Part shown: piece by piece, positions 7-17,187 of the stretch
How the letters are laid out: the number at the start of each line of letters is the position of its first letter
Position numbering within the stretch: the first letter of the stretch is position 1
Assembly (NCBI GenBank): GCA_964596425.1
Contig: CAZQTC010000007.1
Location: forward strand, 10,294 to 74,293
DNA: 64,000 bases
From: an uncultured Spirochaetales bacterium
Lineage (GTDB): Bacteria; Spirochaetota; Spirochaetia; SZUA-6
Reading direction: 5' to 3'
Position numbers and translations under genes: made by a program
Notes under the pieces: generated by a model
The model's database searches: none
The model's input: only the letters and a program-made list of their open reading frames with translations
Told to the model about the DNA's origin: nothing

Positions 7-999
7 CTAACGATACTTCTCTTTTACCATCTCTTCTACTAGCTTAACATTACTCTTATCGACAATTGAGGGACCTGTTAAAACATTACCATGAGGGATA
101 AGGCCATACTTGTTGTACAGCACGAGGAAACCTATAGGCAAATATCCCTGGAGATACTGCTGCTGTTCCACCGTGAATACCATTTTTCCATCCTCTATAG
201 CCTTAATTATAGTATTTGTCAGATCAACGGCAGCCAATTTAACCTTTCCTATAAGTCCCTTATCCTCCAAGAGTTTCAGTGCCGGATGCGCACCAAGAGG
301 ACCAACGGTAAACACCACATCGGTATCCGGATGTTTCGTGAGATAGGCATCAAGAACCTGATAGTTCTCCGAAGCATTGGGAGAACCCGCTAACTTATCA
401 ACCGGAATCCCCTCTGCAGAGAAAACTTCTATAAATCCTTTAGCTCTCGCCTCAAGTCCTGCATGTCCTACCTCGTGTATAAGAATCACCGCACGTTTGG
501 GCTTGGTAGAACCAAACTCCTGAAGCATTCGCTTTGCCGCCTCAATTCCAACCTTATAATCATCCGCTCCCACATAACAGAGATATGGAATGCGGTGTTT
601 AAAATCCCTCGTATCAGGAACATTTATTGCAACAACAGGAATCCCTTTTTTAATCGCATCTTTTAAGGGTTTATCAAGAGCTTTCGCATCGGTAATTGTT
701 ACAACAAGGCCATCCGGTTTCGCAGCAATTGCCGTCTCTACCATATCAACAAGCTTCTGAATAGAAAACTTTTCCGGGCCAAGGTAGGTAACATCACAGT
801 TAAACATTTTACCGGCATCCTCTGCTCCCCTCATTACCACTCCCCAGAATGGATCTGCAGGACCCCCGTGTGTTACCACATAGAACTTCATTCTCTTTCC
901 AGAGGGCTTAAGAGCCTCTTTTTTCCCGGAAGCGAACACACCGACACTCAGAGAAAAAATAAGTCCAAGTGCCAGAAGAACGGTTAAAAATTTTTTCAT
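7..999 (-). CDS. Periplasmic sugar-binding protein, PBP type I (RbsB/LacI-fold-like), with signal peptide
   Basis: N-terminal signal peptide MKKFLTVLLALGLIFSLSVGVFASG. Overall resemblance to ribose/monosaccharide periplasmic binding proteins (GIPVVAINVP, YVGADDY). It is the last visible gene of the CBS / ABC-HK fusion / sigma-54 RR operon, and the gene runs to the window edge. Confidence 0.7.
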   Translation of the reverse strand: MKKFLTVLLALGLIFSLSVGVFASGKKEALKPSGKRMKFYVVTHGGPADPFWGVVMRGAEDAGKMFNCDVTYLGPEKFSIQKLVDMVETAIAAKPDGLVVTITDAKALDKPLKDAIKKGIPVVAINVPDTRDFKHRIPYLCYVGADDYKVGIEAAKRMLQEFGSTKPKRAVILIHEVGHAGLEARAKGFIEVFSAEGIPVDKLAGSPNASENYQVLDAYLTKHPDTDVVFTVGPLGAHPALKLLEDKGLIGKVKLAAVDLTNTIIKAIEDGKMVFTVEQQQYLQGYLPIGFLVLYNKYGLIPHGNVLTGPSIVDKSNVKLVEEMVKEKYR

Positions 1000-1234
1000 A
1001 AAAACCTCCTTAATTTTTTTTTGCAGTTGTCTTTTGTACTACATGCATATCTATAAGCAAAACTTATACCAATACCGCATTATATTTCTCTCGGAAAAAC
1101 ACGCAGACATTGTGAGCGTTATCTATTTACACACAAAGCAATTGCATACAGGGTTCAAGGATTGGACCTTAACAAATCCCAACAGAGAGATAAAAAGCAA
1201 AATACAAGAATATTTATTATTGCTTAAATCAGCC

Positions 1235-1264
1235 AAATTGGTGGTGGATTTCAACCACCAATTT
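1235..1264. terminator. Perfect 11-bp inverted repeat (AAATTGGTGGT-N8-ACCACCAATTT) 10 nt downstream of the regulator stop codon. Possible terminator or attenuator, or alternatively an operator.
   Basis: Stem pairing was checked base by base in the sequence. No strong U-tract follows on either strand, so its function (terminator or protein-binding palindrome) is uncertain. Confidence 0.35.
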
Positions 1265-1273
1265 GAGTTTCCA

Positions 1274-2698
1274 CTAATCCCCCTGCCTTATCCCGTACTT
1301 CTCCATACGGTAGCGAAGGGTGTTTCGGGTTATACCCAATTTTCTTGCTGCCCTGGTTACATTCCAACCGCAGGATTTAAGGGCATCTACAAGCAGTTGC
1401 TTTTCTATCTCAAAGAGAGAACCAACCCCATTCCCAAAAACCTTACCCATCCCATTTTCCTCGGTTTTTTTCTTTCCATCGCCCATATCCATAGAATCTT
1501 TAGAGGAATCCCCCTCAAGATCCAAAGTAATGTCAGATATCCCTATGACCTCCCCGGGGGTTAAAACAACTGCTCGCTCTACTATATTCTTAAGCTCCCT
1601 CACATTCCCAGGCCAGTGATAATTAAGAAAAGCCTCTCTAACCTCTCTACTTATTCCCTTTATTCTCTTCCCCGTCTCTAGAGAATACTTCTTAAGAAAA
1701 TACTCAGCTAACGGGATAATATCCTCTTTGCGTTCTCTTAAAGGAGGAATTTCCAGAGTTATTGCATTAATCCTATAGTATAAATCCTCCCTAAAAGCCC
1801 CGCTTTCAACAAGGGATTTGATATCCCGGTTTGTCGCACATATGAAGCGGGTATTTATTGTCACCACAGTGTTACTGCCAAGGGGTTCAAAACTATTCTC
1901 CTCCAATACTCTTAAAAGCTTGGGCTGAATATTCAATGGTAAATCCGCTATCTCGTCAAAGAACACCGTGCCCCCGTCGGCAATTCTAAGTTTGCCCTTA
2001 AAATCCTTTGTAGCTCCGGTAAATGCCCCCTTTTGAAACCCAAACAACTCGCTCTCAAAGAGGGTGGAGGGAATCGAAGGACAATTTATCCTTATAAAAG
2101 GCCTACTCTTAGAATCAATCAATCCCCCGATAGGTCCCCTCCTGTTTCCCAAATTATGAATCATCCTCGCAACAAGCCCCTTACCGGTACCACTCTCTCC
2201 TACAATCAAAACAGGGGTTGATACATTGGCTATCTTTTTAACCATCTCCACAACCCTGCGCATCTTTTCGCTTCTGTATATAAAATCACCCTGTTCAAAT
2301 TTTTCCCTCAATAACTTGTTCTCGTTTTCAAGATTATCAATTTTAAAGGCCTGCCGCACCGTGTGTCTTATAACATCCCTGTTGAAAGGCTTTGTGATAA
2401 AATCGAAAGCCCCTAATTTCATTGCTTTTACAGCACTCTCTATCGAACCAAAGGCAGTTATAAAGATAATCGGCATCTCTTTTCCATTTTTCTTACAGTA
2501 CTCAAGCAGATCCATACCATCGATACCGGGCATCTTTAAATCGGAAATTATCAGATCAAAGACATGATTTTTCTCAAAGAGAGAGATCGCCTCCTCACCA
2601 CTACTGGCAGTAACAACCTCGTAACCATCTTTCTCCAGGGTCATTTTGAGGACCGTACACATATTAACCTCATCGTCCACTACAAGTATGCGTTTCAT
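1274..2698 (-). CDS. Sigma-54-dependent two-component response regulator (NtrC/AtoC family)
   Basis: Receiver domain (MKRILVVDDE...DLIISDLKMPGIDG). AAA+ sigma-54 activator core with Walker A GESGTGKGLVARMIH and the GAFTGA sigma-54 contact loop. C-terminal Fis-type HTH (TRAARKLGITRNTLRYRMEKYGI). About 10 aa are inserted (IGGLIDSKSR) between Walker A and the NCxxIP segment. Confidence 0.9.
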   Translation of the reverse strand: MKRILVVDDEVNMCTVLKMTLEKDGYEVVTASSGEEAISLFEKNHVFDLIISDLKMPGIDGMDLLEYCKKNGKEMPIIFITAFGSIESAVKAMKLGAFDFITKPFNRDVIRHTVRQAFKIDNLENENKLLREKFEQGDFIYRSEKMRRVVEMVKKIANVSTPVLIVGESGTGKGLVARMIHNLGNRRGPIGGLIDSKSRPFIRINCPSIPSTLFESELFGFQKGAFTGATKDFKGKLRIADGGTVFFDEIADLPLNIQPKLLRVLEENSFEPLGSNTVVTINTRFICATNRDIKSLVESGAFREDLYYRINAITLEIPPLRERKEDIIPLAEYFLKKYSLETGKRIKGISREVREAFLNYHWPGNVRELKNIVERAVVLTPGEVIGISDITLDLEGDSSKDSMDMGDGKKKTEENGMGKVFGNGVGSLFEIEKQLLVDALKSCGWNVTRAARKLGITRNTLRYRMEKYGIRQGD

Positions 2699-2718
2699 AG
2701 TAATTTCGTCTTTCCTCC

Positions 2719-4212
2719 TTACCCCTTTACTCTGACAGAGTTAAACTTAAGTCGAAAAATTGAACCTTTATCAGGAGCGGATTGCACCTCGATACTTCCC
2801 CCGTGCTGTTCAACTATGCGTTTTACAATTGGCAGCCCCAATCCCGTACCGTTAGATTTAGTAGTATAAAAAGGCATAAAAATATGCTTTATCTCTCCCT
2901 CACCGAAACCAATTCCCTGATCCTCTACCTCGATAAAGAGATCGTCGTTAATCTCATAGGCCCTCACAGTAACCACACATCCCCTCTTAGAGGCCTCAAG
3001 AGCATTCATAATAAGATTATTCAATACCTGCTCTATTAAACGCTTATCCAGGTAGTACCTTCCCATATTGTCGCTTATCTCCACATTTATAGCAATTCCC
3101 GGGAAATTCCGCGAGGGGATACTCCTGAGAGAGTGATCTACTATCTCAGAAACAGAGCAACTCTCCCTCTCAATCTTAAGAGGCCTTGCAAAATCAAGAA
3201 AATTATTTATAGCAAGATTTAAAGAATCTATCTCATCTATTAATAATCGTGTTAATCTGTTGTAATCCTCCCTTCCGTTGGTAACCTCAAAATCATCTCT
3301 TAGCATCTCTGCCGTAACCTTCATTATACCAAGAGGATTTTTAATCTGATGAGCAACACCCGCCGCCATCTGTCTCACCGCGCCAATTCTTGAAGAGATA
3401 AGGAGCTTTTCTATACCTTCAAGATCGGTGTCTCTCCTGTCCAGGTTGGCTATACTTCTCCCGTTCTGAAGAATAACAAACCTATCGGCAACCTCAAAAA
3501 CCTCATGGGCATTATGTGTAACAAAAATTACGGAAATTCCTCTCCTCTTCGCTTTCAACACGAGGTTTAACACTTCATCCGTTTCGGATTCGGAGAGCGA
3601 AGCTGTCGGTTCATCGAGGATAAGTAGTTTTGTTCCAAAAAAACCTGCTCTTCCCACTGCAACCTTCTGCCTCTCGCCCCCGGATAGGGACTCTATCATC
3701 TTTACCACATTCCCATCGGTAAAACCATTTTCGTCGAGGAACTTCTCCGCCAAATTGTTCATCTTTTTAATATCCAGAAACTTAAACGGACCGATTCGCT
3801 TCTCAATCTCACGGCCCAAAAAAAAGTTTCTTGTAACATCAAGAAGGTCTATCAAGGCAAGGTCCTGATAAACCGTTTCAATTCCCACGCTTCTTGCATC
3901 CGCAGGACATTTAAAATTAACCCTCTTCCCTTCAAAAAATATTTTACCCCTTTCAGGTTTAACAAGACCGATAAGTGTCTTTATCAGAGTGGTTTTTCCC
4001 GCACCGTTGTCCCCCAGCAGCCCCACTATCTCACCCCGCCCAACACCGAAATTCACCCCGTCAAGAGCCACTACCTTTCCAAATCTAACGCTAATTCCTT
4101 CCATATAGACTAGAAAATTCTTGGCAGGAGTCGATCCAGAGGAAGAATGATCCCTACTATTTATCTGTTCGGAGGAAAATTCCATCACCGCGTATTTTAG
4201 CGCGGATTTCAA
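2719..4212 (-). CDS. Soluble chimeric sensor kinase: an N-terminal ABC-transporter ATPase domain fused to HisKA + HATPase_c
   Basis: Residues ~35-270 form a complete ABC nucleotide-binding domain: Walker A GDNGAGKTT, Q-loop VYQD, signature LSGGERQKV, Walker B LLILDEPT, H-loop VTHN. This is followed directly by the H-box AHQIKNPLGI (HisKA) and the catalytic domain N-box (NLIMNALEA), G1 DQGIGF and G2 GTGLGLPIVK. No TM segments are present. The annotated start is TTG; an in-frame ATG lies 9 codons downstream. Confidence 0.8.
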   Translation of the reverse strand: MKSALKYAVMEFSSEQINSRDHSSSGSTPAKNFLVYMEGISVRFGKVVALDGVNFGVGRGEIVGLLGDNGAGKTTLIKTLIGLVKPERGKIFFEGKRVNFKCPADARSVGIETVYQDLALIDLLDVTRNFFLGREIEKRIGPFKFLDIKKMNNLAEKFLDENGFTDGNVVKMIESLSGGERQKVAVGRAGFFGTKLLILDEPTASLSESETDEVLNLVLKAKRRGISVIFVTHNAHEVFEVADRFVILQNGRSIANLDRRDTDLEGIEKLLISSRIGAVRQMAAGVAHQIKNPLGIMKVTAEMLRDDFEVTNGREDYNRLTRLLIDEIDSLNLAINNFLDFARPLKIERESCSVSEIVDHSLRSIPSRNFPGIAINVEISDNMGRYYLDKRLIEQVLNNLIMNALEASKRGCVVTVRAYEINDDLFIEVEDQGIGFGEGEIKHIFMPFYTTKSNGTGLGLPIVKRIVEQHGGSIEVQSAPDKGSIFRLKFNSVRVKG

Positions 4213-4248
4213 ACTTCTTCAAATCTGTTTTTCAGAAGTGCAGCGGAG

Positions 4249-4725
4249 TTACTTCCCTTTGACAATTTTTAGATATGCTTCAATAATTTCATACATGTTT
4301 ATCTGTCCGATAAGTGCACCTCTACCATCTACAACGGGAAGTTCATTAATCTTATTCTCCATCATCACCTTTGCCACATCTTCCAGAGAATCCGTTTCAT
4401 AAACGTAAAGAGGATCCGTTCTCATTATGTCTTCTGCGGTTTTTGCACCGAACATCTTATCATACTCAAGTACATCAGAACTATACCTATCCTCAAACGC
4501 TGCTACCCAGGGAAAGAGAAAATTAACCACATCATTTAACCTGATAGAACCAATTAAACGGTTACTATCATCAACAACGTATACATGCCGCGTTCTGGTA
4601 TCGGCAATAATACTCTCAAGAACCTCTGTAGTAGATGCAGAAGCTTTTACCGTGGTAGGAACCTTTACAAGAAGGTTCCTCACATCCCTAACCTTAGTTG
4701 TTGCAAGTTTTTCTCTTGTATCCAT
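4249..4725 (-). CDS. CBS-pair (tandem CBS domain) protein
   Basis: Two CBS-like repeats (hydrophobic-x-hhD.....lvGiit..Dll pattern: RHVYVVDDSNRLIGSIRLNDVV and ELPVVDGRGALIGQINMYEII). It sits 36 bp upstream of the ABC-HK fusion gene and is probably co-transcribed with it. Confidence 0.7.
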   Translation of the reverse strand: MDTREKLATTKVRDVRNLLVKVPTTVKASASTTEVLESIIADTRTRHVYVVDDSNRLIGSIRLNDVVNFLFPWVAAFEDRYSSDVLEYDKMFGAKTAEDIMRTDPLYVYETDSLEDVAKVMMENKINELPVVDGRGALIGQINMYEIIEAYLKIVKGK

Positions 4726-5044: not shown

Positions 5045-6970
5045 CTACACAATATAATTACCTCTTTTCATATAATAAGTATGCAGGAGCTTATGGCTCA
5101 ATTCGCTACACGGTCCCTCAGTAAGAAAATCACGGTAAATTTGCACTATGTGAGGATTCTCGTGGGATTTTCTATACTCAAGTGTTTCTTCTTCGGCATA
5201 GATAGCCTCTGCACGTTTGCGCCTAATTTCAGGAGAAGTAGGAATCGGCTGTCCCCCACCTCCAAGGCACCCACCAGGACAGGCCATAAATTCGATAAAG
5301 TGACATTCACTAAACTTACCTCCCCGTTTTATATCATCCAGAACTACCCGGGCGTTGGCCGTTCCGTGTACCACGGCTACCTTTAAAGTGATTCCCCTAA
5401 GAAACTCCCAACTTTCAAAGTGACTTTTAAGAAGTGAGGGAACAGAACCCACTTCGGTAATTGGAAACTCCGCATACTTTATTCCCTCAAAACCCCGCAC
5501 CGGTTCTATTTTCATATTAGGGAATATCTCCTCTACCCTTTTACCAGTAATCAGTTCTATCACAGTCCTAAGAGCCGCCTCCATTACACCCCCGGTAGCC
5601 CCAAAGATAAGTCCAGCCCCAGAAGCCTCCCCAAAAGGCTCATCAAAATTCGATTTGGGTAAAGTAGGCAAATTCAAACCCATCTCTTTTATCATTCCGG
5701 CAAGCTCGCGAGTGGTAACAGCATAATCAACATCTTTAAATCCAGAGTCCTGCATCTCAGGTCTGTTACACTCGTACTTCTTAGCCGTACATGGCATAAG
5801 TGCTACAGTTACAATATCCTCAGGATTTATACCATGGAGCTTCGAATAGTAGGTTTTAATTATTGCTCCAAACATCTGTTGCGGACTCTTAGCACTAGAA
5901 AGATTTTCAATAAACTCAGGATAAAAATACTCACAAAACTTAACCCATCCCGGGGAACAAGAGGTGAACTGCGGAAACCGCACAGACACATCTCCATCTA
6001 CCAATAATTTTTTTAACCTGAGCAATAGTTCGGTTCCCTCTTCGATTATCGTTAAATCAGCTGTAAAATTCGTATCAAAAACCCTATCAAAACCACACCT
6101 ACGGAGCGCCGTATTAAGCTGACGGGTCACCGACGTCCCCGGCGGACATCCAAACTCCTCACCTATAGCAGCCCTTGGACTGGGAGCTGTCTGTATTACC
6201 ACATGTTTAGTAGGATCATCTATAGCCCTCCATACATCATCACTCGAATCATTTTCATGGAGTGCCCCCGTAGGACAATGAACTATACACTGACCACAAT
6301 TAATGCATACAACATCCGCAAGAGGTTTTTCCATAAAACTGCTAATCCTTAACTCATTCCCTCTGCCAACGATTCCCAATGCTCCTACACCCTGTAACTC
6401 CACACACGCCCGAACACAACGCCGGCATTGGATACACTTGTTCATATCTCTTACAATTGAATAACTTGATCTATCTAACCTATAACGCGGTATCTCGGAC
6501 TTACCAAATCTGAAAAAATCTACCCCATACTCCTTCGCAAGACTCTGAAGCTCACAGTTATTATTCTTAACACAGGTAGAACAACTACCATAATGCTCAG
6601 ATAGCAGAAGATCTAAAATGTGCCTTCTCGCTTTCCTTATCCGCGCTGAATAGGTCTTAACCTTTATGGGAGAGGTTATAGAGTACGAACAAGAGGCCTG
6701 CAAATTTCGCTCTCCCTCTATTTCTACAATACATATACGACACACCCCCGCTACGCACAGATCTTCATGATGACACAGCGTTGGAATCTGCACACCTACA
6801 CGTCTTGCAGCCTCCAACACGGTCGTACCAAAAGGCACCCTTACCTCTATGCCATCTATAGATACCCGCACGGTCCCACCAATTCCACCCGATTGCTCTT
6901 TACTCAAATTACTTCCCTGGGAAAAAGTAGAGACCATGCCGGAATCATTCGAAGAATTATATTTACCCAT
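5045..6970 (-). CDS. hydA: [FeFe]-hydrogenase catalytic subunit HydA (multidomain, group A3-like)
   Basis: N-terminal 2Fe-2S ferredoxin-like region plus two 4Fe-4S motifs (CIQCRRCVRAC, CINCGQCIVHCP). H-cluster motifs L1 TSCSPGW, L2 MPCTAKKYE and L3 EFMACPGGCLGGGGQP. The ORF track starts at a TTG at 6988. An ATG at 6968-6970, preceded by GAGGAGG-N9, is the more likely start. Confidence 0.9.
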   Translation of the reverse strand: MGKYNSSNDSGMVSTFSQGSNLSKEQSGGIGGTVRVSIDGIEVRVPFGTTVLEAARRVGVQIPTLCHHEDLCVAGVCRICIVEIEGERNLQASCSYSITSPIKVKTYSARIRKARRHILDLLLSEHYGSCSTCVKNNNCELQSLAKEYGVDFFRFGKSEIPRYRLDRSSYSIVRDMNKCIQCRRCVRACVELQGVGALGIVGRGNELRISSFMEKPLADVVCINCGQCIVHCPTGALHENDSSDDVWRAIDDPTKHVVIQTAPSPRAAIGEEFGCPPGTSVTRQLNTALRRCGFDRVFDTNFTADLTIIEEGTELLLRLKKLLVDGDVSVRFPQFTSCSPGWVKFCEYFYPEFIENLSSAKSPQQMFGAIIKTYYSKLHGINPEDIVTVALMPCTAKKYECNRPEMQDSGFKDVDYAVTTRELAGMIKEMGLNLPTLPKSNFDEPFGEASGAGLIFGATGGVMEAALRTVIELITGKRVEEIFPNMKIEPVRGFEGIKYAEFPITEVGSVPSLLKSHFESWEFLRGITLKVAVVHGTANARVVLDDIKRGGKFSECHFIEFMACPGGCLGGGGQPIPTSPEIRRKRAEAIYAEEETLEYRKSHENPHIVQIYRDFLTEGPCSELSHKLLHTYYMKRGNYIV

Positions 6971-6984
6971 CAAACTTATCCTCC

Positions 6985-8175
6985 TCAAATCTGTTTAGCA
7001 ACTACCCTACCGAGTATCTCATCTCTAAAATAGTTAACAATAGAAAGAAATGCATTCGGACTAGACTGACCAAGACCACACTTACAGGTACATTGCATCG
7101 TCCTGCCCAACTCTATAAGCTCCTCTAAATACGCAATGGAACATTTGCCTTCTTTGAGCAATCTAACACCCTCTAGCAATTTAACATTTCCCAACCGACA
7201 AGGGACACACTGCCCGCAAGACTCTTCACAGAAAAACTCAAGAAAATTCTCAGCCACGCTAAGCATATCTCTATCAGCTCCAAAAACAATAATGGAACCG
7301 CCCGTTGGGATGTCTTCATAAGCCAAAGTAGATGAAAATTCCTCTCTAGGCACACACCGACCCGAGGCTCCACCAACCTGAACTGCTTTCGCATCTTCTT
7401 TCCCAACCTCCCTCAATAACTCGCTAATAGTAATACCCATGGGAAACTCATACACCCCGGGTTTCTCTACATCCCCAGAAACACTAAAAAGCTTGGTTCC
7501 AGTTGATCCCTCCGTGCCAAATTTTTTGAACCATTCTACCCCCTTTTCAAGAAGCACAGAAACTGTGGCAAATGTCTCCACATTATTAACTATGGTAGGC
7601 ATTCCTCTAAAACCGACATTCACGGGAAAAGGAGGTTTATTTCTCGGCTCTCCCCGTTTCCCCTCAAGAGATTCTATAAGAGCAGTTTCTTCTCCACATA
7701 CATATGCCCCGGATCCCAATCTTATACCAATGTCAAAATCAAAACCATCTATGCCCATTATACCACTTCCAAGGAATCCCTCTTTGCGCCTTTTCTCCAA
7801 TACACACTCAAGATGCCGCAACAAATAAGTGTACTCGCCTCGAAGATACACAATCCCTTCACTTGCACCTATAGCAAAAGCCCCAATGGTCATACCCTCA
7901 AAAACCATATCCGCATAATCACTAAGAAGCACCCTATCCTTAAAGGTTCCCGGTTCACCTTCGTCCGCATTACATATTACATATTTCTTCTCTCCGCTCG
8001 CCGCAGCAGCTAAATTCCACTTAATCCCGGTAGGAAATCCGGCTCCACCCCTTCCCTTTAACTTACTCTCCCTTACCTCTTCAACAGTTCTATGTCTTCC
8101 CACCTTTAATGCCTTTTTCAAACCACTTTCAGGCTCGTGAACACCAAAGATTACAGGTCCTGTCTTCCCCTTCAT
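6985..8175 (-). CDS. hydB: NuoF-like NADH-binding flavoprotein subunit of the hydrogenase (HydB), minimal 396-aa form
   Basis: GRGGAGFPTGIKW NADH/FMN-binding motif. C-terminal 4Fe-4S cysteine motif (CGQCVPCRLG...). AGGAGG RBS 10 nt upstream of the ATG. It lacks the extra N- and C-terminal ferredoxin domains of the 600-aa HydB of Thermotoga-type enzymes. Confidence 0.85.
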   Translation of the reverse strand: MKGKTGPVIFGVHEPESGLKKALKVGRHRTVEEVRESKLKGRGGAGFPTGIKWNLAAAASGEKKYVICNADEGEPGTFKDRVLLSDYADMVFEGMTIGAFAIGASEGIVYLRGEYTYLLRHLECVLEKRRKEGFLGSGIMGIDGFDFDIGIRLGSGAYVCGEETALIESLEGKRGEPRNKPPFPVNVGFRGMPTIVNNVETFATVSVLLEKGVEWFKKFGTEGSTGTKLFSVSGDVEKPGVYEFPMGITISELLREVGKEDAKAVQVGGASGRCVPREEFSSTLAYEDIPTGGSIIVFGADRDMLSVAENFLEFFCEESCGQCVPCRLGNVKLLEGVRLLKEGKCSIAYLEELIELGRTMQCTCKCGLGQSSPNAFLSIVNYFRDEILGRVVAKQI

Positions 8176-8177
8176 AC

Positions 8178-8693
8178 CTAATCCGCCTCCTTTCCGTCGT
8201 ATGCAGGATCAACAGAGTTTCCTCTGCATTCCTCTATAATTTCCCTTACCCTGCCAGGGGTCAGCCTGGTGTACACCTTATCGTTAATCAACATTGCCGG
8301 TCCTTGATCGCACATTCCAAGACAGTTAACCCACTCCAGCGAAAACTCGCCATCAGGCGTGGTTTCTCCGAAGGATATACCAAGCTCATTCTCAAGCTGC
8401 CTAGCCACCCTACTCTTACCTGCCATATCACAGGCTATGGTTCGACATAACCGAATAACATAGCGGCCTTTAAGTTTTACATCAAGAAAAGAATAGAAGG
8501 AGACCACACCGGACACCTCAACAGGAGAAATGTTAAAATGCCCGGCAAGCTCCTGTATGGCAAAATCCGGGACATGTCGATATTTCCTCTGTATCTCCTG
8601 CAACACGGGTAACAATCCATCCCTTTTGGAACCAAACTTTCTTACCCAGGTTTTAATATCAGCGCTTAACTTTTCCCTTTCACATAACAACAT
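8178..8693 (-). CDS. hydC: NuoE-like thioredoxin-fold 2Fe-2S subunit of the hydrogenase (HydC)
   Basis: Typical NuoE/HoxE segments (LLPVLQEIQRKYRHVPDFAIQELAGHFNISPVEVSGVVSFYSF, and the CRTIACDMAG / CLGMCDQGPAM cysteine pairs). It is the first gene of the hydCBA operon. Confidence 0.85.
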   Translation of the reverse strand: MLLCEREKLSADIKTWVRKFGSKRDGLLPVLQEIQRKYRHVPDFAIQELAGHFNISPVEVSGVVSFYSFLDVKLKGRYVIRLCRTIACDMAGKSRVARQLENELGISFGETTPDGEFSLEWVNCLGMCDQGPAMLINDKVYTRLTPGRVREIIEECRGNSVDPAYDGKEAD

Positions 8694-8828
8694 CTACCTA
8701 CCTCCGCACTAGGAAAACAAAAATTTTCACCCTTTGTGTTACAAAATTAAAAAAAGTAACACCGTTCAATAATTCACAATATTTTATCGTGACAAAAATG
8801 TCAAGTACTTAATAAAACTCAAGAATAA

Positions 8829-10061
8829 CTATTCGTACCTCAGGGCTTCCTGAGGGGGAAGATTTGCAGCCCTCGAGGCGGGATAAAATCCGGAGAGCAG
8901 CCCCGTTACTACGGAGAGTAACAGAGCAATTACTCCTGTAGCCAGATCGATTATAACAGGCCAGCGGGCAAAATGCCCTATTATATATGAGGCAAGAAAA
9001 GAGAGCCCCAAACCAAACAAGCCACCCCCACCACAGAGAAGGAGGGTTTCGATCAAAAACTGAGCCATAATCTGACTCTTCTTGGCACCGAGAGCCTTTC
9101 TTATACCTATCTCTCTGGTCCTCTCTTTTACGGAAACAAGCATTATATTCATAATCCCGATAGCCGCAACGAGAAGGGCAATTCCGGCAAGTATGGCAAC
9201 ACCGGCTGTTACCGAACCTACCACCTTGTTCACCATCTCCAGTTGTGCCTTCATCTCCGTAACAGAAAACTTATCGTATTTTCCATCCCACTTTCCGTGA
9301 TTCCTGGCAAGAACCGCCAACACTTTCTTTCTTACAACTCCGACCTCCGATAAATTTTTAACCTTGGCAAGAACAGTTTTATATCCCCTACGCATAAAAG
9401 AGAACCTCTTAAAGGCCCCTATTGGCACAACCACTACATTGTTGTAAGTCTTATCAGGATCGGAAATGGAAATTGTATCGGTTTTCTCCTTTCTGGCAAG
9501 AACCCCTATAACCTGAAAGGGGGTTCCAAAGGCAATGAAAAACCTTCCAATAGGATTAAACCCCGGAAAAAAGGTGTCAGCCACAAGACTCCCTATTATC
9601 GCAACCTTACTCTGAGCCCTTACCTCCTCATCTGTAAATATCCTTCCAGCCTTTAATTTATACTCCACAAAATTTATATAGTTCCTGTTAGTTCCAACCA
9701 CAGAAATCTTCTTCTCAAGATTTCCTACCCGAACCACCGTACTTGCAGAAACAATAGGAGCAATATCCTCCATTTCCGGAACATGCTCTTCCAGACTGCG
9801 TAAATCACCGTCACTAATGTATTCAATCCTGTAATGGCGTCTCGTTGAATACGCCGTTTCGTAGTTCGGTGATATATATATCGTATTCGCAGACAGACCC
9901 TCAAATTCCTTCATAATGATAGCCTTACCACCGTTACCCGCAGCAATAACCGTAACCACAGAGGCTATTCCAATTACAATACCCAACAGAGTCAAAAATG
10001 TACGAGATTTGTTCGAGGCAATTGCAGAGATGGCTTCGCCGAAGAGAATCTTAAACATCAC
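8829..10061 (-). CDS. ABC transporter permease, MacB/FtsX family (MacB_PCD periplasmic domain + FtsX 4-TM)
   Basis: N-terminal TM, large periplasmic domain, and C-terminal FtsX-type bundle with the ERTREIGIRKALGA motif. It overlaps the upstream permease gene by 4 bp. Confidence 0.8.
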   Translation of the reverse strand: MMFKILFGEAISAIASNKSRTFLTLLGIVIGIASVVTVIAAGNGGKAIIMKEFEGLSANTIYISPNYETAYSTRRHYRIEYISDGDLRSLEEHVPEMEDIAPIVSASTVVRVGNLEKKISVVGTNRNYINFVEYKLKAGRIFTDEEVRAQSKVAIIGSLVADTFFPGFNPIGRFFIAFGTPFQVIGVLARKEKTDTISISDPDKTYNNVVVVPIGAFKRFSFMRRGYKTVLAKVKNLSEVGVVRKKVLAVLARNHGKWDGKYDKFSVTEMKAQLEMVNKVVGSVTAGVAILAGIALLVAAIGIMNIMLVSVKERTREIGIRKALGAKKSQIMAQFLIETLLLCGGGGLFGLGLSFLASYIIGHFARWPVIIDLATGVIALLLSVVTGLLSGFYPASRAANLPPQEALRYE

Positions 10062-11269
10062 TCAATCCTTAAAGCATCTACGGGCATCATTTTCGAGGCC
10101 TTATATGCGGGATATATCCCAAACACAAGTCCTATAAGAGTAGAGATTCCAAGGGCAAACAGTACATAGAGAATGTTCATTAAAAAATTCCACTTTAGTA
10201 TACTGCAGGCCAGTGCTGCTATTCCCACACCAAAAACAACCCCAACTCCACCCCCCAAGAGGCAGAGAGTAATCGCCTCTATCATAAACTGGACAAGGAT
10301 ATCCCGACTGTTAGCCCCCACCGCCATACGTATTCCTATCTCTCGGGTACGCTCTGTAACTGTTACAAGCATTATATTCATAATTCCAAGCCCACCAACT
10401 ACAAGTGAAATAGAGGCTATTACCAGTATCAACATACTTATCACATTAAGTACCCTATCCACAATTTTAATATAAGAATCCATCTTATCTATTCTAAACC
10501 GCTTTTCTCCCCTCAAATATCCGTACCTATTGATAAGATAGTTGTCTATCCTATCTATGGCGTTATCAACATTACTCATAGAATCGAAACGCATAAGATA
10601 GATCCAATATTTTATTTCTCGCCCGCCCCATATAAGTCTTGCCATATAACTTGAGGGAATAAAAATTGTGCTGTTATCGGAACCATCGCTCAAAAAACCC
10701 CTCTCTAACCTTTCGGTTAACCCCACCACGGTATAATCGTGTCCTAGCATACTAATCTGCTTACCGATGGGATCCGTATCCCCGAACAGATCCTCGGCTA
10801 TATCCGGCCTTATAACACAGACTTTCCTGTGTAACCTTATATCCTCGGGAACAAATGCTCTTCCCTTTGCCACTTTTATTGCAAATATCGAAAAATAATC
10901 GGGGCTTACTCCGAAAACAGAAACATCCTCTCCCTTTCCATGGTAACGTACCTTTACCCATCTGTTCAGTATGGTACTCTTGTACACAAGACCGGGCAGA
11001 TACCTATTAAAAAAATCCACATCACTCTCTCTAAGAAGAACCCTGTGCTCTCCCCTTACATAGGCATCCCTATTAGGCCTAACCCAGATAAGATTAGAAC
11101 CAAACTTACCCATTTCTCCCGATATCGAAGTCCTAAAGGACAAACCAACAATAGAAATCGCTATTAAGCTACCAACCCCAAAGTTTATACCAAGCATGGT
11201 GAGAAAAGAACGAATCTTGTTGGAGGCTATAACCTCAAATGTCTGTCGTATACCCTCTGCAATTTTCAT
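10058..11269 (-). CDS. ABC transporter permease, MacB/FtsX family (second, non-identical copy)
   Basis: Same architecture, with the ERTREIGIRMAVGA motif. It is distinct in sequence from the downstream copy, so the permease is likely heterodimeric. Confidence 0.8.
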   Translation of the reverse strand: MKIAEGIRQTFEVIASNKIRSFLTMLGINFGVGSLIAISIVGLSFRTSISGEMGKFGSNLIWVRPNRDAYVRGEHRVLLRESDVDFFNRYLPGLVYKSTILNRWVKVRYHGKGEDVSVFGVSPDYFSIFAIKVAKGRAFVPEDIRLHRKVCVIRPDIAEDLFGDTDPIGKQISMLGHDYTVVGLTERLERGFLSDGSDNSTIFIPSSYMARLIWGGREIKYWIYLMRFDSMSNVDNAIDRIDNYLINRYGYLRGEKRFRIDKMDSYIKIVDRVLNVISMLILVIASISLVVGGLGIMNIMLVTVTERTREIGIRMAVGANSRDILVQFMIEAITLCLLGGGVGVVFGVGIAALACSILKWNFLMNILYVLFALGISTLIGLVFGIYPAYKASKMMPVDALRIE

Positions 11270-11292
11270 CCTTCTCCCTTTACACCAACCAT

Positions 11293-12054
11293 CTACTCAT
11301 GCTTGGAAATAGCCTCTGCCAGAGCATCATTATCCAGATCCGCCACCCTGGACAATTCTTCCTCTGCATCTTTCGGTTTTGATATTCTTTCATCACCTGT
11401 AATAAGTCCATCCTTAAGGTAAACAATTCTACCGGCGTGAAGGGCAATGTCCATCTCATGCGTAACCATAATTATCGTAGCCCCCTCCCTGTGTAATTTC
11501 TGAAATATTGCTATTATGGAGAGCCCCGTCCTGGAATCAAGATTACCGGTGGGCTCATCCGCAAAAATTATACTGGGATTGTTAACAAGAGCCCTGGCAA
11601 TGGCCACACGTTGGCGTTGACCACCGGAAAGTTCATTGGGCTTGTGTTTGGCCCTATGTTCAAGGCCAACGCGTTTAAGCGCATCGAACGCAAGCTGGCG
11701 TCTTTCTCTCTCCCTGAGACCCGCATACACAAGGGGGAGTTCTACATTCCGAAGGGCGGTTATTCTGGGAAGAAGGTTAAAGGTTTGAAAGACAAAACCT
11801 ATCTTTTTATTGCGCAACCTTGCAAGTTCCGTATCGCCCAGGCCAGAAACATCCCTCCCCTCGAGAAAATAACGCCCCTCGGTAGGTCTATCAAGACAGC
11901 CTATTATATTCATCAGTGTCGATTTTCCGGAACCACTCGCTCCCATTATACAGACAAACTCGTGTTCCCTGACCTCCAGGTTAATACCGCGAAGGGCCTC
12001 TACCTCCACCATGCCCATCTTGTAAGTCTTTTTTATATTTTCGAGCCTTATCAT
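11293..12054 (-). CDS. ABC transporter ATP-binding protein, MacB/LolD type
   Basis: Walker [10 protein letters not shown], signature [15 protein letters not shown], Walker [13 protein letters not shown], and H-loop MVTHE. Confidence 0.9.
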
Positions 12055-13334
12055 TTTTTCTTCTTCTCTTTCACTCTCACAAGTTCACCATCATGAAAGA
12101 GCTTAAGATTCCCTCTAAGAATCATATCACCCACCTTAAGACCGGAAATAACCTCTATCTTTTCCACACCCATGATTCCCGTTTTTATCCCGGTTTTTAC
12201 AAGTTTATAGAGCCCTTCGGACATGCTTGAGTCAGAGTTTTTCATTTTAACAAGCCTATACACAAACTTCTTATTTTTTTCCAAAAAGTACTGATCAATA
12301 CCGATAGCCGGAACGTTACTTTTCTTTTCCACCGTAATGTAGATAGAACAACTAGCGCCCACCTTGGCAAGCCCTTTGGGATCATCTATATCAACATGAA
12401 CCTCACACACCCTGGAATCTCCAATATTTCTAATAACGGGAGCAATGTAAGAAACCCTACCCGTAAGTGCCGAGTTTATAAAGGTATCAGATTCTATCCT
12501 CACCCTTTGATTCAATCCAACATACCCGATATCAACCTCATCTATGTTAACCACAACCTCGAGATCCCTTGTATCCTGGACCACCGCTACAGAAGAACCA
12601 ACCCCAACTACAATTCCCTCCTCAACCTTAAGCCTGGTCACAACCCCGGAAATTGGGCTTTTGATGGTACAGTTTTTAAGATCTTCCTCTATGGAGTTAA
12701 GATTATCAATTGCATGTCTTACCTCGGATGAGTTTTCTATTATTTCAGCGTCACTCGGAGGAGGGGTTTTTCTGGAATCATTTATGCTCCTACCCTCACG
12801 AAGATTCAGACGCTGAAGAGCAGAGATATAACTGTCCCGAGCAATTTCATACCTATCCCGTGCATCGGCAAGTTGTTCATCACTGGCAGACTGGATCTTA
12901 TAGAGGGCCTTAACACTCTCGTAATTTCTCTTTGCCTGCTCAAGATTGGCTTTCGCTTGCCTAAAGGCAACTCGCAGGTTTAGCAGCTCTTCCTTAACAG
13001 AGTTTCTAGCACTCCTAAGGGAGGAGAGGGCCTGTCGTTTTCTAATTAATAGCTTCTCTTTATCCAGAAGGACAAGGATATCCCCCTTGCGGACAACCGA
13101 GCCCTCTTTAACAAGCACCCTACTTACCGTTCCGCTAACCTTGGCTACAACCACCGCACGCTTCTTACTTCTTATTTCTCCGTTTGCAGATACCTCCCTG
13201 GAGAGATTAGCAGTAGCAACCCTCGTAAAATCAACAATGGGATAATGTTTTTTTCTCTTTGATATAATCCCTCCGACAACCATTAGTACTATCAAAATCA
13301 AAACTACAAAGAACCCTATTCTTTTTTTTGTCAT
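12051..13334 (-). CDS. HlyD/MacA-family periplasmic adaptor (membrane fusion protein)
   Basis: N-terminal TM anchor, long coiled-coil region, and beta-barrel/lipoyl-like segments. It overlaps the ATPase gene by 4 bp. Confidence 0.8.
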
Positions 13335-13390
13335 CTATACCTTCCCCTTCGATAATTTTCCGAGTAATGTTTTAGCCTCCTTCAACCCAT

Positions 13391-14911
13391 CTAACCTCCG
13401 TATTTACTCTCCAGAACAGAAAGTAAGTCCCTGCCCAACAAAACCAGAATATTCAAATATTCCCTGTTAAGTTCCATCCTATAGTTTAAGAGCTCTAGTT
13501 TTGCATTTTCGAGTTCCATATTGTACCCATTCAAATTACTCTGTGTTATTCTTCCCAGGTTGAAATCTGTCTTTGCCTTTTTGTACTCCATCTCTGCGAT
13601 TTTGAGATTGAGTTTTGCATATTCATAGAGCTTCCTGTTTTCTTCCATCTTACCAAAGAGATCCTCCAGACTGTTCCTAATCTCCCGTTTTTGCGCCTCC
13701 AACCTATACCTGGTAGCCTCTATACCAGCCTTCGTCGCCTTTAACCGTGCATCAAAACTGCCGGCATCGAAGAGTTTCGCAGATAGGGTTATACTTCCAC
13801 TTAACACCGGAGAAGAATTGTCATTAAAAGAATTTTCCAGAGCAACTTTGAGATCGGTGCCGGAAGCGGCAGTGGTGGAAAATCGCACCCCACCCGACAC
13901 TGTTACAACCGGAGCTCTACCTAATTTTGTTTTTATAAGATTATCTTCGGCAATTTTCAGATTGTAGGTTGAAACAGCAAGATTAATATTCTCCGAAAGG
14001 GCTCTCTCTATAACCTCTTTTCGTTTACTAAGAAGGGAATAATCACAGAGATCCTCTATACCTGTGCTTACAACCACATCTCCTGGAAATCCATACTCCT
14101 CACAAAATCTCTCCTTCATAACGGCAAAACTCTTCTTTGCCTCCTCCCAATCAATCCTCGCCTTGTAAAAAGAGGCCTCTGCCTTAAGCAATTCCAATCT
14201 GGAAACCTTTCCCAATCTATACCGTTTCCTCGTAGTCTCGTAACTCGCTCTGGCGTTATTAAACCTAAAGGCAACAAACTGTTCCTTGCTCTTTAAAAAC
14301 TTAAGGTTAAAGTACTCGTTTATAAGATTTAGAACCTCACTATTCAGCCGGGAGAGATAATTCTTCTCCGCTATTTTCAAATTATTAGCGGCAATTCTTT
14401 TACCTGCTCCATAGGCATCCTCAAAAAAAATAGGCTGAGAAAGTGTTAAGCCTATCTCCGGGGTATTATCATACCTTGCCCCTGTCCCCCCAAGAGCATC
14501 GGATAGGATTTCCGGGGTTATAGAACCATTTGAGGTAACACTTAGGGTATCCTTAAGGGTCAAACTAAGTGTTCCACCAGTTGGGAGGTACTGATTAACA
14601 GAGAGGCCAGGTGTAATACTCCAGCTCTTAGCATTTTCAATCGTATAATCAGTACCCAAATAGCTTCCCTCTGTTTTCGTATTATTAACTACAGAAAGAG
14701 ACATATCGGTACTAACACTGGGGTACAAACTTGAAATGTACTCCACATAACTTGCCCTGGCAGATTCGAGAGATAAACATGTGGCTTCAAAATTAGGAGA
14801 GTGCTCTTTAAACCTCTCCAGGAGAGTAGAAAGATTCAGCTCTGCCTCCGAAAAGACACCAATACCAGAAAGGCAAAAACCAAAGAGAAGAACCCCCCAA
14901 AATCTCTTCAT
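13391..14911 (-). CDS. TolC-like outer-membrane efflux protein (OMF)
   Basis: Signal peptide starting at the internal Met (MKRFWGVLLFGFCLSGIGVFS). Two long coiled-coil/beta repeats typical of outer-membrane factors. It is the first gene of the tolC-hlyD-macB-ftsX-ftsX operon. Confidence 0.7.
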   Translation of the reverse strand: MKRFWGVLLFGFCLSGIGVFSEAELNLSTLLERFKEHSPNFEATCLSLESARASYVEYISSLYPSVSTDMSLSVVNNTKTEGSYLGTDYTIENAKSWSITPGLSVNQYLPTGGTLSLTLKDTLSVTSNGSITPEILSDALGGTGARYDNTPEIGLTLSQPIFFEDAYGAGKRIAANNLKIAEKNYLSRLNSEVLNLINEYFNLKFLKSKEQFVAFRFNNARASYETTRKRYRLGKVSRLELLKAEASFYKARIDWEEAKKSFAVMKERFCEEYGFPGDVVVSTGIEDLCDYSLLSKRKEVIERALSENINLAVSTYNLKIAEDNLIKTKLGRAPVVTVSGGVRFSTTAASGTDLKVALENSFNDNSSPVLSGSITLSAKLFDAGSFDARLKATKAGIEATRYRLEAQKREIRNSLEDLFGKMEENRKLYEYAKLNLKIAEMEYKKAKTDFNLGRITQSNLNGYNMELENAKLELLNYRMELNREYLNILVLLGRDLLSVLESKYGG

Positions 14912-14927
14912 ACCCTTCACCCAATTC

Positions 14928-15683
14928 CTACACGAAGAAGAGAGAAACCAACCCCGGAACGGCAGAAACAATCCCAAAAGTTATCACTATGCCTAGAGCC
15001 CGATTTGATCGAATTTTGCCAGCCGCCACAAGGCCATAGTATACTAACACAAAGTAGAGGATATTAAAAATATTGGTAAAGTAATCAATAAGATAAAACG
15101 GAAACTTTCCTAGGGCTGTACGATTAAAAAACGCAGCAATGCTAAGGTTGGTTTTAACGGCGTCACCCAACTCCATTACATTGGTAGCGGATGCTACAGC
15201 CCCCTTCCAATCGGAAAAGTACACGATTAGCCCGCTTACAACTCCCCCCACTACGGTAACAATGGCAGAAAACACAACAATTCGAAATAGGAGTTTGTAC
15301 GAAATCTCTCCTCCCCTAAAAATCTTTACAAGCAGCCATAGAACAAAAGCTCCCACATAAAATGTAACAAGATACACAATGATACTGCCAGCATAGGCCG
15401 AAACAATAGTGATTGTCCTGGTTACACCACTCTCAGCACCCCTTCTGGCCTGCTCCATAGAGATATTCATACCCTTTGCCTTCATCTTTGCCAGCTGCAG
15501 CGAAATGCTTTTATCCAGATAGACCTTGCTCGTTGTAATAGGGACTACAAAACTTACAGCCACCAGGGCCAAAATTAAGATAAAAACAATAGGAACAAAC
15601 ACCTTTGTATTCTCATTCACATCCCGAAATCCCTCCGATGGACTTGCAAGGATTTTCTTCCAGATCAAAAGAGATTTAAACAT
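14928..15683 (-). CDS. Yip1-domain integral membrane protein
   Basis: Five predicted TM helices after a short soluble N-terminus, with a general Yip1/YIF1-like pattern. GGGGAG RBS upstream. The call is by architecture only. Confidence 0.45.
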   Translation of the reverse strand: MFKSLLIWKKILASPSEGFRDVNENTKVFVPIVFILILALVAVSFVVPITTSKVYLDKSISLQLAKMKAKGMNISMEQARRGAESGVTRTITIVSAYAGSIIVYLVTFYVGAFVLWLLVKIFRGGEISYKLLFRIVVFSAIVTVVGGVVSGLIVYFSDWKGAVASATNVMELGDAVKTNLSIAAFFNRTALGKFPFYLIDYFTNIFNILYFVLVYYGLVAAGKIRSNRALGIVITFGIVSAVPGLVSLFFV

Positions 15684-16374: not shown

Positions 16375-16390
16375 TGGCACATAAGTTGCT
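16375..16390 (+). promoter_or_regulatory. Near-consensus sigma-54 (-24/-12) promoter TGGCAC-N5-TTGCT
   Basis: TGGCACATAAGTTGCT. GG and GC are separated by exactly 10 nt. It lies 57 bp upstream of the OMP / small protein / HK / NtrC-like operon. Confidence 0.6.
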
Positions 16391-16446: not shown

Positions 16447-17187
16447 ATGAAAAGACTAACAATTCTAACGGTAGTAATGCTATCCTTACTGGCTGGCGTT
16501 ACATTCGCAGAATTCCCTGGTATCAGTAAATGGGGAGCCATAGGCGGGGGATTTGGATACACCGGATTTATGGTAACCTATTCGGATACATCAACCCTAA
16601 ACTCCTTTCTAAAAGCCAACGGATACTCTGCGATTGACAATTTCGACTATTCCTTCGGAGGGGGGGGAGGCTCCGTAATAAACAATTTCTACATAGGGGG
16701 TTCCGGATTTGGAAGCATTCTATCCCAAACCTCAGATAATGCCTCCGGCAATACGTATCTCAAGAGAGAAACCGGAGGAGGAGGACTTGAGTTCGGATAT
16801 GTCTTACTACACCTAAAGAATTACCTCTTTCTCCCAATAGCGGGTTACACATGGGGATCAACAACCTACAAGGTGTACAACACCACGGCAACATCCACAG
16901 ATTTTCAAACTCTACTTACACAACCGGGGAATATGTCAGAGATAAAAAATTCCAAATTTTCCCTAAACGTAGCACTCTTAAACATTATAATGTTCAGGGG
17001 TATGGGCTTATACGTAAAACTCGGTTACTCCTTTACACCGGTAAGCACGTGGAGTTTGGACGGATACAGCGGACACATTACAAATACCCCACAGGAGAGT
17101 CCCCACTCGGTATTTATCTCGGCGGGGTTACTCTTCGGCGGAATGAAATCAACGAAGGAGTACAATGTAAAGGTCGAAAAAAAATAG
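16447..17187 (+). CDS. Secreted Gly/aromatic-rich protein, putative outer-membrane beta-barrel
   Basis: GGAGG RBS. Signal peptide MKRLTILTVVMLSLLAGVTFA. Alternating hydrophobic/Gly-rich strands (FGYTGFMVTY, GGGLEFGYVLL). No recognisable family. Confidence 0.45.
   Translation: MKRLTILTVVMLSLLAGVTFAEFPGISKWGAIGGGFGYTGFMVTYSDTSTLNSFLKANGYSAIDNFDYSFGGGGGSVINNFYIGGSGFGSILSQTSDNASGNTYLKRETGGGGLEFGYVLLHLKNYLFLPIAGYTWGSTTYKVYNTTATSTDFQTLLTQPGNMSEIKNSKFSLNVALLNIIMFRGMGLYVKLGYSFTPVSTWSLDGYSGHITNTPQESPHSVFISAGLLFGGMKSTKEYNVKVEKK

Follow-up and report, generated by a model that had tools for sequence, protein, structure and literature searches.

What would a histidine kinase report on if its sensor module were the nucleotide-binding domain (NBD) of an ATP-binding cassette (ABC) importer? 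The question is raised by a gene at 2719-4212 on the minus strand of a 64,000-nucleotide stretch of DNA from an uncultured Spirochaetales bacterium (contig CAZQTC010000007.1, positions 10,294 to 74,293), referred to throughout as the window. An initial annotation, made from the sequence without database searches, had read the product as one polypeptide with a complete ABC NBD followed by HisKA and HATPase_c domains and no transmembrane helix, and had proposed a 'trigger-transporter-like' sensor that relays importer activity to a sigma-54 activator. The present analysis indicates that this NBD-kinase architecture is real, rare, conserved and apparently uncharacterised, and points to what is apparently a novel variation on transporter-coupled two-component sensing. 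The gene and its parts are:

2719-4212, minus strand: NBD-histidine kinase fusion gene, a single uninterrupted open reading frame (ORF) of 497 aa from TTG 4212
~3394-4110, minus strand: NBD
~3292-3423, minus strand: junction helix
3184-3378, minus strand: HisKA
2743-3048, minus strand: HATPase_c

Public gene calls begin at ATG 4185 and give a product of 488 aa (P0001); this ATG, rather than TTG 4212, is likely the real start. Pfam models matched the 497-aa product in the order ABC_tran (residues 50-204, E = 1.8e-28, covering the full profile, 1-137), HisKA (279-343, 1.8e-12) and HATPase_c (389-490, 6.5e-26), and no transmembrane helix was detected by hydropathy (maximum Kyte-Doolittle mean over 19 residues, 1.09). 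The ORF, the domain order and the hydropathy profile all uphold the single soluble polypeptide of the initial annotation, and every NBD and H-box motif that it quoted was found. These are Walker A (67-75, GDNGAGKTT), the Q-loop (Q116), the signature LSGGERQ, Walker B (LLILDEPT) and the H-loop (THN) in the NBD, and the H-box AHQIKNPL in the kinase, whose phospho-acceptor is His288 (H279 in P0001). With the whole set from Walker A to the H-loop, a catalytic Glu and a D-loop on one side (PF00005, CUT2/FrcA subgroup), and the H-box His with N, G1, F and G2 boxes on the other (class I, HisKA/HATPase_c), the protein reads as a bona fide member both of the ABC NBDs and of the class-I histidine kinases. 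In NCBIfam comparisons, residues 35-273 align to the N-terminal NBD of the tandem CUT2 ATPases YtfR, XylG, AlsA, RbsA and MglA, and the alignment stops exactly at the end of their NBD1; residues 273-491 match the kinase cores of AtoS (E = 1e-52) and ZraS (1.5e-49). As judged from these alignments, the kinase core in effect replaces the second NBD of a CUT2 ATPase.

When 5.8 billion clustered proteins (clusters at 90% identity) were searched, approximately 100 clusters showed the ABC_tran-HisKA-HATPase_c architecture, with identities of 35-93%; they derive from assemblies of NCBI, JGI, ENA and Logan. Most are from metagenome-assembled genomes of Spirochaetota, and those carrying a taxon label belong to that phylum. 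An exhaustive profile scan covering 1.84 billion representatives at 50% identity gave ~13 full-length and ~7 fragment clusters spanning both halves, and all later matches were ordinary tandem-NBD ATPases; with so few full-length clusters among so many representatives, the family is rare but conserved. A profile scan of genome contigs with the family alignment was dominated by FrcA-like ATPases, and returned one locus (L002) as its sole true fusion. The possibility that an assembly error or frameshift had joined an ABC ATPase gene to a separate kinase gene has nothing in its favour beyond the prior worry over an indel at the 3300-3500 junction. Against it, the same architecture with a gap-free junction recurs in ~100 independent clusters from four data sources, the exact protein lies on two independently assembled contigs, and the structural model described below has a confident, unbroken helix over the junction. 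An artefact is therefore ruled out for practical purposes, and with it the frameshift concern that accompanied the initial annotation. The fusion is real and under selection.

Database entries for these proteins read only 'ATP-binding cassette domain-containing protein' or 'simple sugar transport system ATP-binding protein'. No PDB chain covering both halves was found, by sequence or by fold; taken separately, the kinase resembles the ZraS cytoplasmic domain (9jfj) and the NBD resembles ordinary ABC NBDs. Full-text searching of the literature, including the review PMC8534201, found no description of an NBD-kinase fusion. The earlier remark that such fusions are not functionally characterised agrees with what these searches of the literature and the PDB returned.

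Is the fused NBD still a motor? Family alignments of 32 and 82 members, with residues numbered as in P0001, show no variation at Walker A K64, Q-loop Q107, Walker B D191 or the catalytic E192, and almost none at the signature LSGG, D-loop L197/S198, H-loop H224, H-box H279 or the N, G1 and G2 boxes. The CUT2 hallmark NFFLGRE, which follows the Q-loop, is retained to the same degree: across 82 sequences N120, F122 and E126 never vary, and conservation of F121 and G124 is 90% or more. In the catalytic domain N390/N394, D422-G424-G426 and the GxGxG of the G2 box (G446, G448, G450) are at least 90% conserved, as is H279. Because these motifs are invariant or nearly so throughout the family, the NBD is predicted to be an active-type motor and no degenerate dimerisation relic or pseudo-domain. 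Family-wide retention of the D-loop, catalytic Glu and H-loop rules out the NBD degeneracy that the initial annotation had left to be checked.

The two halves are joined in an unusually constrained way. The stand-alone paralogous ATPase, described below, ends with a C-terminal helix (...TDPEELIEVIAGRLKK), and in the fusion the equivalent helix runs on (...TDLEGIEKLLISSRIGAVRQMAAGVAHQ). An AlphaFold2 model built from the 82-sequence alignment (mean predicted local distance difference test score, pLDDT, 85.4; predicted template modelling score, pTM, 0.65) contains one unbroken helix at 255-298 (P0001), leading from the NBD through His279. In this model the last NBD helix is continuous with helix 1 of the dimerisation and histidine-phosphotransfer (DHp) domain, which bears the phospho-acceptor His. 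The ADRF motif and the His are exactly 46 residues apart in each of the members parsed (76/76), and alignment columns 233-300 contain zero gaps in 82 of 82 sequences despite divergence to 35% identity. Since the length of this helical connector is strictly fixed, the family argues for a rigid mechanical coupling of NBD movement to the DHp bundle.

To whom would the kinase speak, and about what? The genes 3′ of the fusion, including those on a Logan contig (L001) that carries the same NBD-kinase protein and runs past window position 1, are:

1274-2698, minus strand: NtrC-type sigma-54 enhancer-binding response regulator, starting 20 nt downstream of the kinase stop
1235-1264, minus strand: hairpin (inverted repeat AAATTGGTGG..CCACCAATTT) directly after the regulator stop codon
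1056-1071, minus strand: sigma-54 promoter-like -24/-12 element (TGGTATaagttTTGCT), from a pattern search, ~57 nt upstream of the substrate-binding protein start
7-999, minus strand: gene for a substrate-binding protein (SBP) with a signal peptide (Peripla_BP_4, Pfam 5.6e-49), related to rhizopine/cyclitol SBPs
L001 5008-5988, beyond window position 1, after the SBP gene: BPD_transp_2 permease, 326 aa
L001 5985-6767, beyond window position 1, after the permease gene: single-NBD ATPase, 260 aa

The regulator matches Response_reg (3e-32), Sigma54_activat (9.7e-62) and HTH_8 (8e-18) in Pfam. Its translation contains the receiver-domain aspartate Asp53, a GAFTGA loop in the AAA+ domain and a C-terminal Fis-type helix-turn-helix, all features of the NtrC type, and its best NCBIfam matches are AtoC (the best) and NtrC, both under the equivalog cut-offs. 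From these features it is judged a bona fide NtrC-type enhancer-binding protein. A comparative set of thirteen loci (L001, L002 and L082-L092) was compiled, and in 12 of the 13 a sigma-54 regulator gene lies directly 3′ of the NBD-kinase gene (L001, L002, L082-L090 and L092). On the 9-kb contig L091 there is no regulator, and the kinase gene is followed by an SBP gene and then by a gene truncated at the contig end. The pairing of the NBD-kinase with the regulator at 1274-2698 as cognate partners is strongly supported by this gene order. The sigma-54 activator that the initial annotation took as relay partner was found in all of the examined loci whose sequence continues beyond the kinase gene.

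A 274-nt spacer separates the regulator gene from the SBP gene, and two features within it are conserved. The hairpin at 1235-1264 folds as RNA at -20.7 kcal/mol (z = -3.7; 0 of 200 shuffles as stable) and is also found by a terminator scan, making it a probable terminator of the kinase-regulator operon. It is kept in L090 and partly in L082, and what is conserved is the sequence (GGTGG..CCACC) and not structure alone; instead of, or besides, a terminator it could be a binding site for the activator (an enhancer or upstream activating sequence). The element at 1056-1071 follows the pattern TGGTAT-N5-TTGCT, with GG at -24, GC at -12 and the exact spacing of a sigma-54 promoter. Similar elements precede the regulated SBP gene in 8 further loci (L082, L083, L085, L086, L089, L002, L084 and L088), sharing the form GG-N10-GC (TGGYAY-N5-TTGC). 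Their distance to the SBP start is 36-58 nt in L001, L082, L083, L085 and L002, and larger in the GC-rich L086 and L089. When four spacers were aligned, this element and the ribosome-binding site were left as the only invariant blocks.

What follows the element is, by its gene content, a complete FrcBCA-like CUT2 importer of SBP, permease and single-NBD ATPase, so that the ABC importer predicted to lie beyond position 1 is indeed present there. Over 235 aa, the single-NBD ATPase has 60% identity with the fused NBD by BLASTP (57-60% in alignment within the window clade), which marks the fused NBD as an apparent close paralogue of the importer's own ATPase in that clade. The conserved sigma-54 element before the SBP gene makes the importer operon the expected regulatory target; the SBP gene is likely the first of a separate, predicted sigma-54-dependent operon that forms the output of the system. 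A single four-gene operon including the SBP was considered and rejected in favour of two transcription units split by the hairpin and the sigma-54 element. The initial annotation, which had run CBS protein, NBD-kinase, regulator and SBP together as one operon, therefore stands only in part: the CBS gene is probably co-transcribed with the kinase here, but the SBP gene stands apart, beyond 274 nt, a hairpin and a promoter-like element. We consider it very probable that this neighbouring, sigma-54-dependent operon for a CUT2 importer is under the control of the kinase-regulator pair.

A further sigma-54 site was observed elsewhere in the window. A perfect consensus (TGGCACataagTTGCT) at 16375-16390 on the plus strand lies 57 nt upstream of a 246-aa ORF (16447-17187, plus strand) without a Pfam match. 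Beyond this ORF come another kinase, with HATPase_c alone, and another sigma-54 response regulator (17740-20369, plus strand). Together these imply that the organism uses sigma-54 regulons widely.

Does the kinase merely control the importer, or does it also listen to it? In 11 of the 13 loci an SBP gene and a BPD_transp_2 permease gene adjoin the kinase gene, in either orientation. Seven (L001, L090, L082, L083, L085, L086 and L089) share one layout, in which NBD-kinase and sigma-54 regulator are followed, after a spacer, by SBP, permease and single-NBD ATPase. The transporter operon of L002 runs convergently from the opposite strand and has its own sigma-54 element 41 nt before the SBP gene. 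A further arrangement, seen in L084 and L088, is especially informative. Here NBD-kinase, regulator, a first SBP (SBP1) and a first permease (permease1) are packed with gaps of 9-49 nt, and no single-NBD ATPase follows permease1; tblastn of each ~17-kb locus found only the fused NBD and a tandem ATPase. SBP1 and permease1 are taken to be orthologues of the window-type proteins because they are 61-67% and 70-72% identical to them, respectively, and permease1 keeps an intact EAA-like CUT2 coupling loop (AVGGNQ.AAEAIGINV). In these two loci it is instead another CUT2 transporter, complete and unrelated to the first (SBP2, tandem ATPase, permease2), that has the sigma-54 element 44-46 nt ahead of it; its components are only 25-40% identical to those of the first set. 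Since the permease has been kept without a motor of its own and is co-transcribed with the NBD-kinase, the situation is most simply explained if the fused NBD is the docking partner of permease1. This arrangement provides the strongest, if indirect, support for a transporter-coupled model.

Such a model may be set out as follows. The NBD-kinase would be a soluble homodimeric class-I kinase with an intact CUT2/FrcA-type NBD as its sensor module. The two NBDs of the dimer would sit on the coupling loops of a homodimeric BPD_transp_2 permease, in place of the stand-alone ATPase dimer. Docking of a ligand-loaded SBP would then lead to ATP-dependent closure of the NBD sandwich, and closure would move or rotate the N-terminal ends of the DHp bundle, switching the balance of kinase and phosphatase activity and so setting phosphorylation of the regulator. 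In MalK, the C-terminal domains remain paired while the NBDs open and close, and the DHp shift upon NBD closure would resemble this behaviour. The quantity reported would be substrate availability or transport-cycle activity, and no cytoplasmic ligand. In window-type loci the induced operon would bring a dedicated paralogous ATPase for bulk import; in loci of the L084/L088 type the SBP and permease would have turned into a dedicated receptor with the NBD-kinase as its sole NBD, and the output would be the second complete transporter. That the whole sequence of events holds, from docking on a CUT2 permease through SBP- and ATP-driven closure to transmission along the rigid helix, we regard as somewhat better than an even prospect. 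The comparative evidence, in the loci at large and in the L084/L088 operons above all, favours the 'trigger-transporter-like' sensor of the initial annotation.

Several observations weigh against this model. One locus, L087, contains two NBD-kinase paralogues and no transporter within 8 kb, and the genomes of L084 and L088 could encode an ATPase for their permease at some other site. Identity between the fused NBD and the ATPase next to it is only 36-39% in L085 and L086. The permeases of L086 and L089 are ~32% identical to that of the window, while the NBDs are ~54% identical; with the permeases so divergent and the NBDs kept, the docking interface would need to be generic to CUT2 transporters. 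Comparisons of NBD with permease divergence and of region-wise identity gave no specific co-evolution signal, and between fused NBD and ATPase the helical subdomain is no more conserved than the ATP-binding core. As the coupling loop is generic to CUT2, partner exchange is plausible, but it does not discriminate between readings and leaves the co-evolution comparison uninformative.

Some of the same observations suit a different sensor, one independent of any permease, in which the NBD is an ATP-dependent dimerisation switch that tracks ATP/ADP or some ligand in the cytoplasm and the transporter is merely a target. The protein has no membrane segment, all of its ATP-binding and dimerisation motifs are kept, which would be enough for closure without a transmembrane domain, and the lack of a transporter beside L087, like the lack of obvious covariation between the fused NBD and the partner permease or ATPase, would be expected. 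A CBS protein, of a kind that binds adenosyl ligands, is moreover encoded upstream in this window, but that gene is not conserved. A nucleotide or energy sensor would also leave unexplained why an ATPase-less SBP and permease (70% permease identity) lie inside the L084/L088 kinase operon and why the CUT2-specific NFFLGRE is as conserved as the catalytic motifs, and there is no obvious logic in its controlling one substrate-specific importer. We think this explanation unlikely.

Alternatively, the fused NBD might pair head-to-tail with the free ATPase, either on the permease or away from it, or compete with it for docking, and so report the occupancy or abundance of the motor instead of the cycle driven by the SBP. 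The 57-60% identity between the two in the window clade, with D-loop and signature kept, would permit this, and the paired degenerate paralogues described next show that heterodimeric NBD arrangements evolve in the family. It is difficult to reconcile with L084 and L088, where no free single-NBD ATPase is nearby, and with L085 and L086, where the ATPase is only 36-39% identical; furthermore, the DHp homodimerisation that the kinase needs already joins two fused NBDs. Competition or pairing with the ATPase appears less probable still than a permease-independent switch.

A divergent sub-lineage of the family consists of two complementary degenerate paralogues, found in L087 (8001-9467, plus strand; 10884-12311, minus strand), L092 (3019-4527, plus strand; 8988-10424, minus strand) and L091 (5430-6827). 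Type 1 (P0098, P0103 and P0104) has a full NBD and an intact catalytic domain, and the H-box His is lost or weakened. Type 2 (P0105 and P0106) retains the His, but its signature (LTKGERQ) and D-loop are degenerate and its catalytic domain is dead. The two types are neighbours in L087 and L092, whereas the L091 contig is too short to show such a pair. Their complementary defects suggest that the NBD-kinase is obligately heterodimeric there, with a single degenerate ATP site of the kind present in asymmetric ABC transporters. The FrcA-like NBD was also observed in other fusions (P0110, P0111, P0114 and P0118). In one type the NBD is joined through a low-complexity linker and a single transmembrane helix to an extracytoplasmic domain of ~150 aa without a Pfam match, whilst another joins the NBD to HEAT repeats. 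From these architectures, the FrcA-like NBD seems to have been recruited repeatedly as a module.

A more far-reaching form of the transporter-coupled model can be put forward tentatively, and we rate its chances at slightly below even. The NBD-kinase would be a true motor subunit of the CUT2 complex, whose hydrolysis cycle gates autophosphorylation, so that the fusion would act as a covalent flux sensor; in L084 and L088 the importer would have become a non-transporting receptor, and in the split sub-lineage the sensor would be an obligate heterodimer. The family could then be read as an evolutionary series, from an importer with a sensing paralogue, to a dedicated transporter-derived receptor, to a split heterodimeric pair.

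The identity of the imported substrate can be approached from the SBP and its surroundings. The SBP scores 246 bits against the NCBIfam model rhzpin_SBP, under the 420-bit cut-off, and iol-type genes of the IolG, IolB/KduI, IolD and IolE families flank L084 and L088. Because of this match and this linkage a cyclitol ligand is possible, and as a weak inference the importer would carry an inositol-like cyclitol or a sugar. Downstream of the importer, L001 encodes on the minus strand (6769-11373) a 2-hydroxyacid dehydrogenase, a ROK-family regulator/kinase, an IolG-like GFO/IDH/MocA dehydrogenase and a DegT-family aminotransferase; an oxidoreductase and an aminotransferase adjoining a rhizopine-like SBP hint at an inosamine or cyclitol substrate.

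On the other side of the kinase gene lies one further small gene:

4249-4725, minus strand: stand-alone CBS-pair protein, 158 aa, 37 nt upstream of the kinase ORF (Pfam CBS 3.8e-23, two stretches)

In a 91%-identical relative (L090) this gene is split into ORFs of 80 and 83 aa. It is absent upstream of the kinase in L082-L089 and in all loci below 70% identity, and in L002 no CBS-sized ORF lies directly upstream (from listed ORFs, without a Pfam scan of them). The CBS protein was accordingly rejected as a core partner, being kept only in the closest relative, where it is split, and absent elsewhere. We take it as a lineage-specific accessory, probably co-transcribed here, and the place given to it in the initial annotation as a component of the system was not sustained by its conservation.

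Directly upstream of the CBS gene, at 5045-8693 on the minus strand, are three Cys-rich ORFs (171, 396 and 647 aa), which, as read from their translations only, look like subunits of a [FeFe]-hydrogenase/NADH-dehydrogenase-type complex; they would be consistent with an anaerobic fermentative organism. A MacB-type efflux set unrelated to the NBD-kinase follows at 8829-15683 on the minus strand, with an FtsX/MacB_PCD permease, an ABC ATPase, an HlyD adaptor, an OEP factor and a Yip1-domain protein, and adjoined by a 410-aa ORF (8829-10061).

Why would such a system matter? In the Bce, Pst-PhoU-PhoR and MalK-MalT systems it is mechanistically unclear how ABC activity reaches the signalling proteins, and the contacts are transient and non-covalent. 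The NBD-kinase offers a minimal and genetically tractable system in which opening and closing of an NBD should translate straight into DHp movement. It would add an ABC motor domain to the input modules of histidine kinases, and it indicates that the present ATPase-type database labels hide a signalling function of these genes.

Each part of the NBD-kinase system has a counterpart among known proteins. The NBD is closest to FrcA-type ATPases and to NBD1 of RbsA, XylG, YtfR and MglA, the best NCBIfam matches over 35-273, with which it has NFFLGRE in common; the place of NBD2 in the tandem CUT2 ATPases, or of the C-terminus in FrcA-like ones, is taken here by the DHp and catalytic kinase domains. 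The kinase core and its sigma-54 partner are like those of ZraS and AtoS with their regulators ZraR and AtoC. However, ZraS and AtoS sit in the membrane and sense through periplasmic or PAS domains, without an NBD, whereas the present kinase is soluble and carries one. A sigma-54 activator, CbrB, is likewise the partner of CbrA. In PstSCAB-PhoU-PhoR and MalK-MalT the state of an importer NBD (PstB or MalK) is relayed to transcriptional regulation, and MalK has, below its NBD dimer, a C-terminal regulatory domain in the topological position expected here for the DHp bundle. Those relays are non-covalent, through PhoU or through sequestration of MalT, and no kinase is attached to the NBD, whereas here the kinase is fused to it.

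Covalent fusion of a transporter module to a kinase core is known from the SLC5-STAC-kinases CbrA and CrbS (PMC7096432 and PMC5715377) and from the Amt-kinase fusion KsAmt5 (PMC8534201); in these, phosphorylation is controlled by the binding of substrate or by transport state. As in those proteins, both modules lie here in one polypeptide. The permease-fused kinases, however, incorporate a membrane permease, whereas here the fused part is a soluble ATP-hydrolysing motor and the membrane and periplasmic parts are separate gene products; with a soluble NBD and no SLC5 or Amt domain in the same polypeptide, the NBD-kinase falls outside that group. A further close parallel in function is the 'flux-sensing' module BceS-BceAB of the Firmicutes, in which an intramembrane-sensing kinase that is blind alone reads the activity of an ABC transporter and the regulator induces the same transporter operon (PMC8534201). 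Here too the kinase is proposed to read an ABC transporter whose operon its regulator probably induces. BceS, however, is a separate protein that spans the membrane with two helices and contacts BceB, whereas the kinase described here is soluble and covalently fused to the NBD; the Bce transporter is an exporter-like pump and the present one an SBP-dependent CUT2 importer with a BPD_transp_2 permease; and the Bce regulator is of the OmpR type rather than a sigma-54 activator. With no transmembrane segment in the kinase, and a BPD_transp_2 permease where a Bce module has BceB with its large extracellular domain, the system stands outside the Bce modules as well. By analogy, the NBD-kinase system may nevertheless work like a Bce module or like the permease-fused kinases, whilst belonging to neither.

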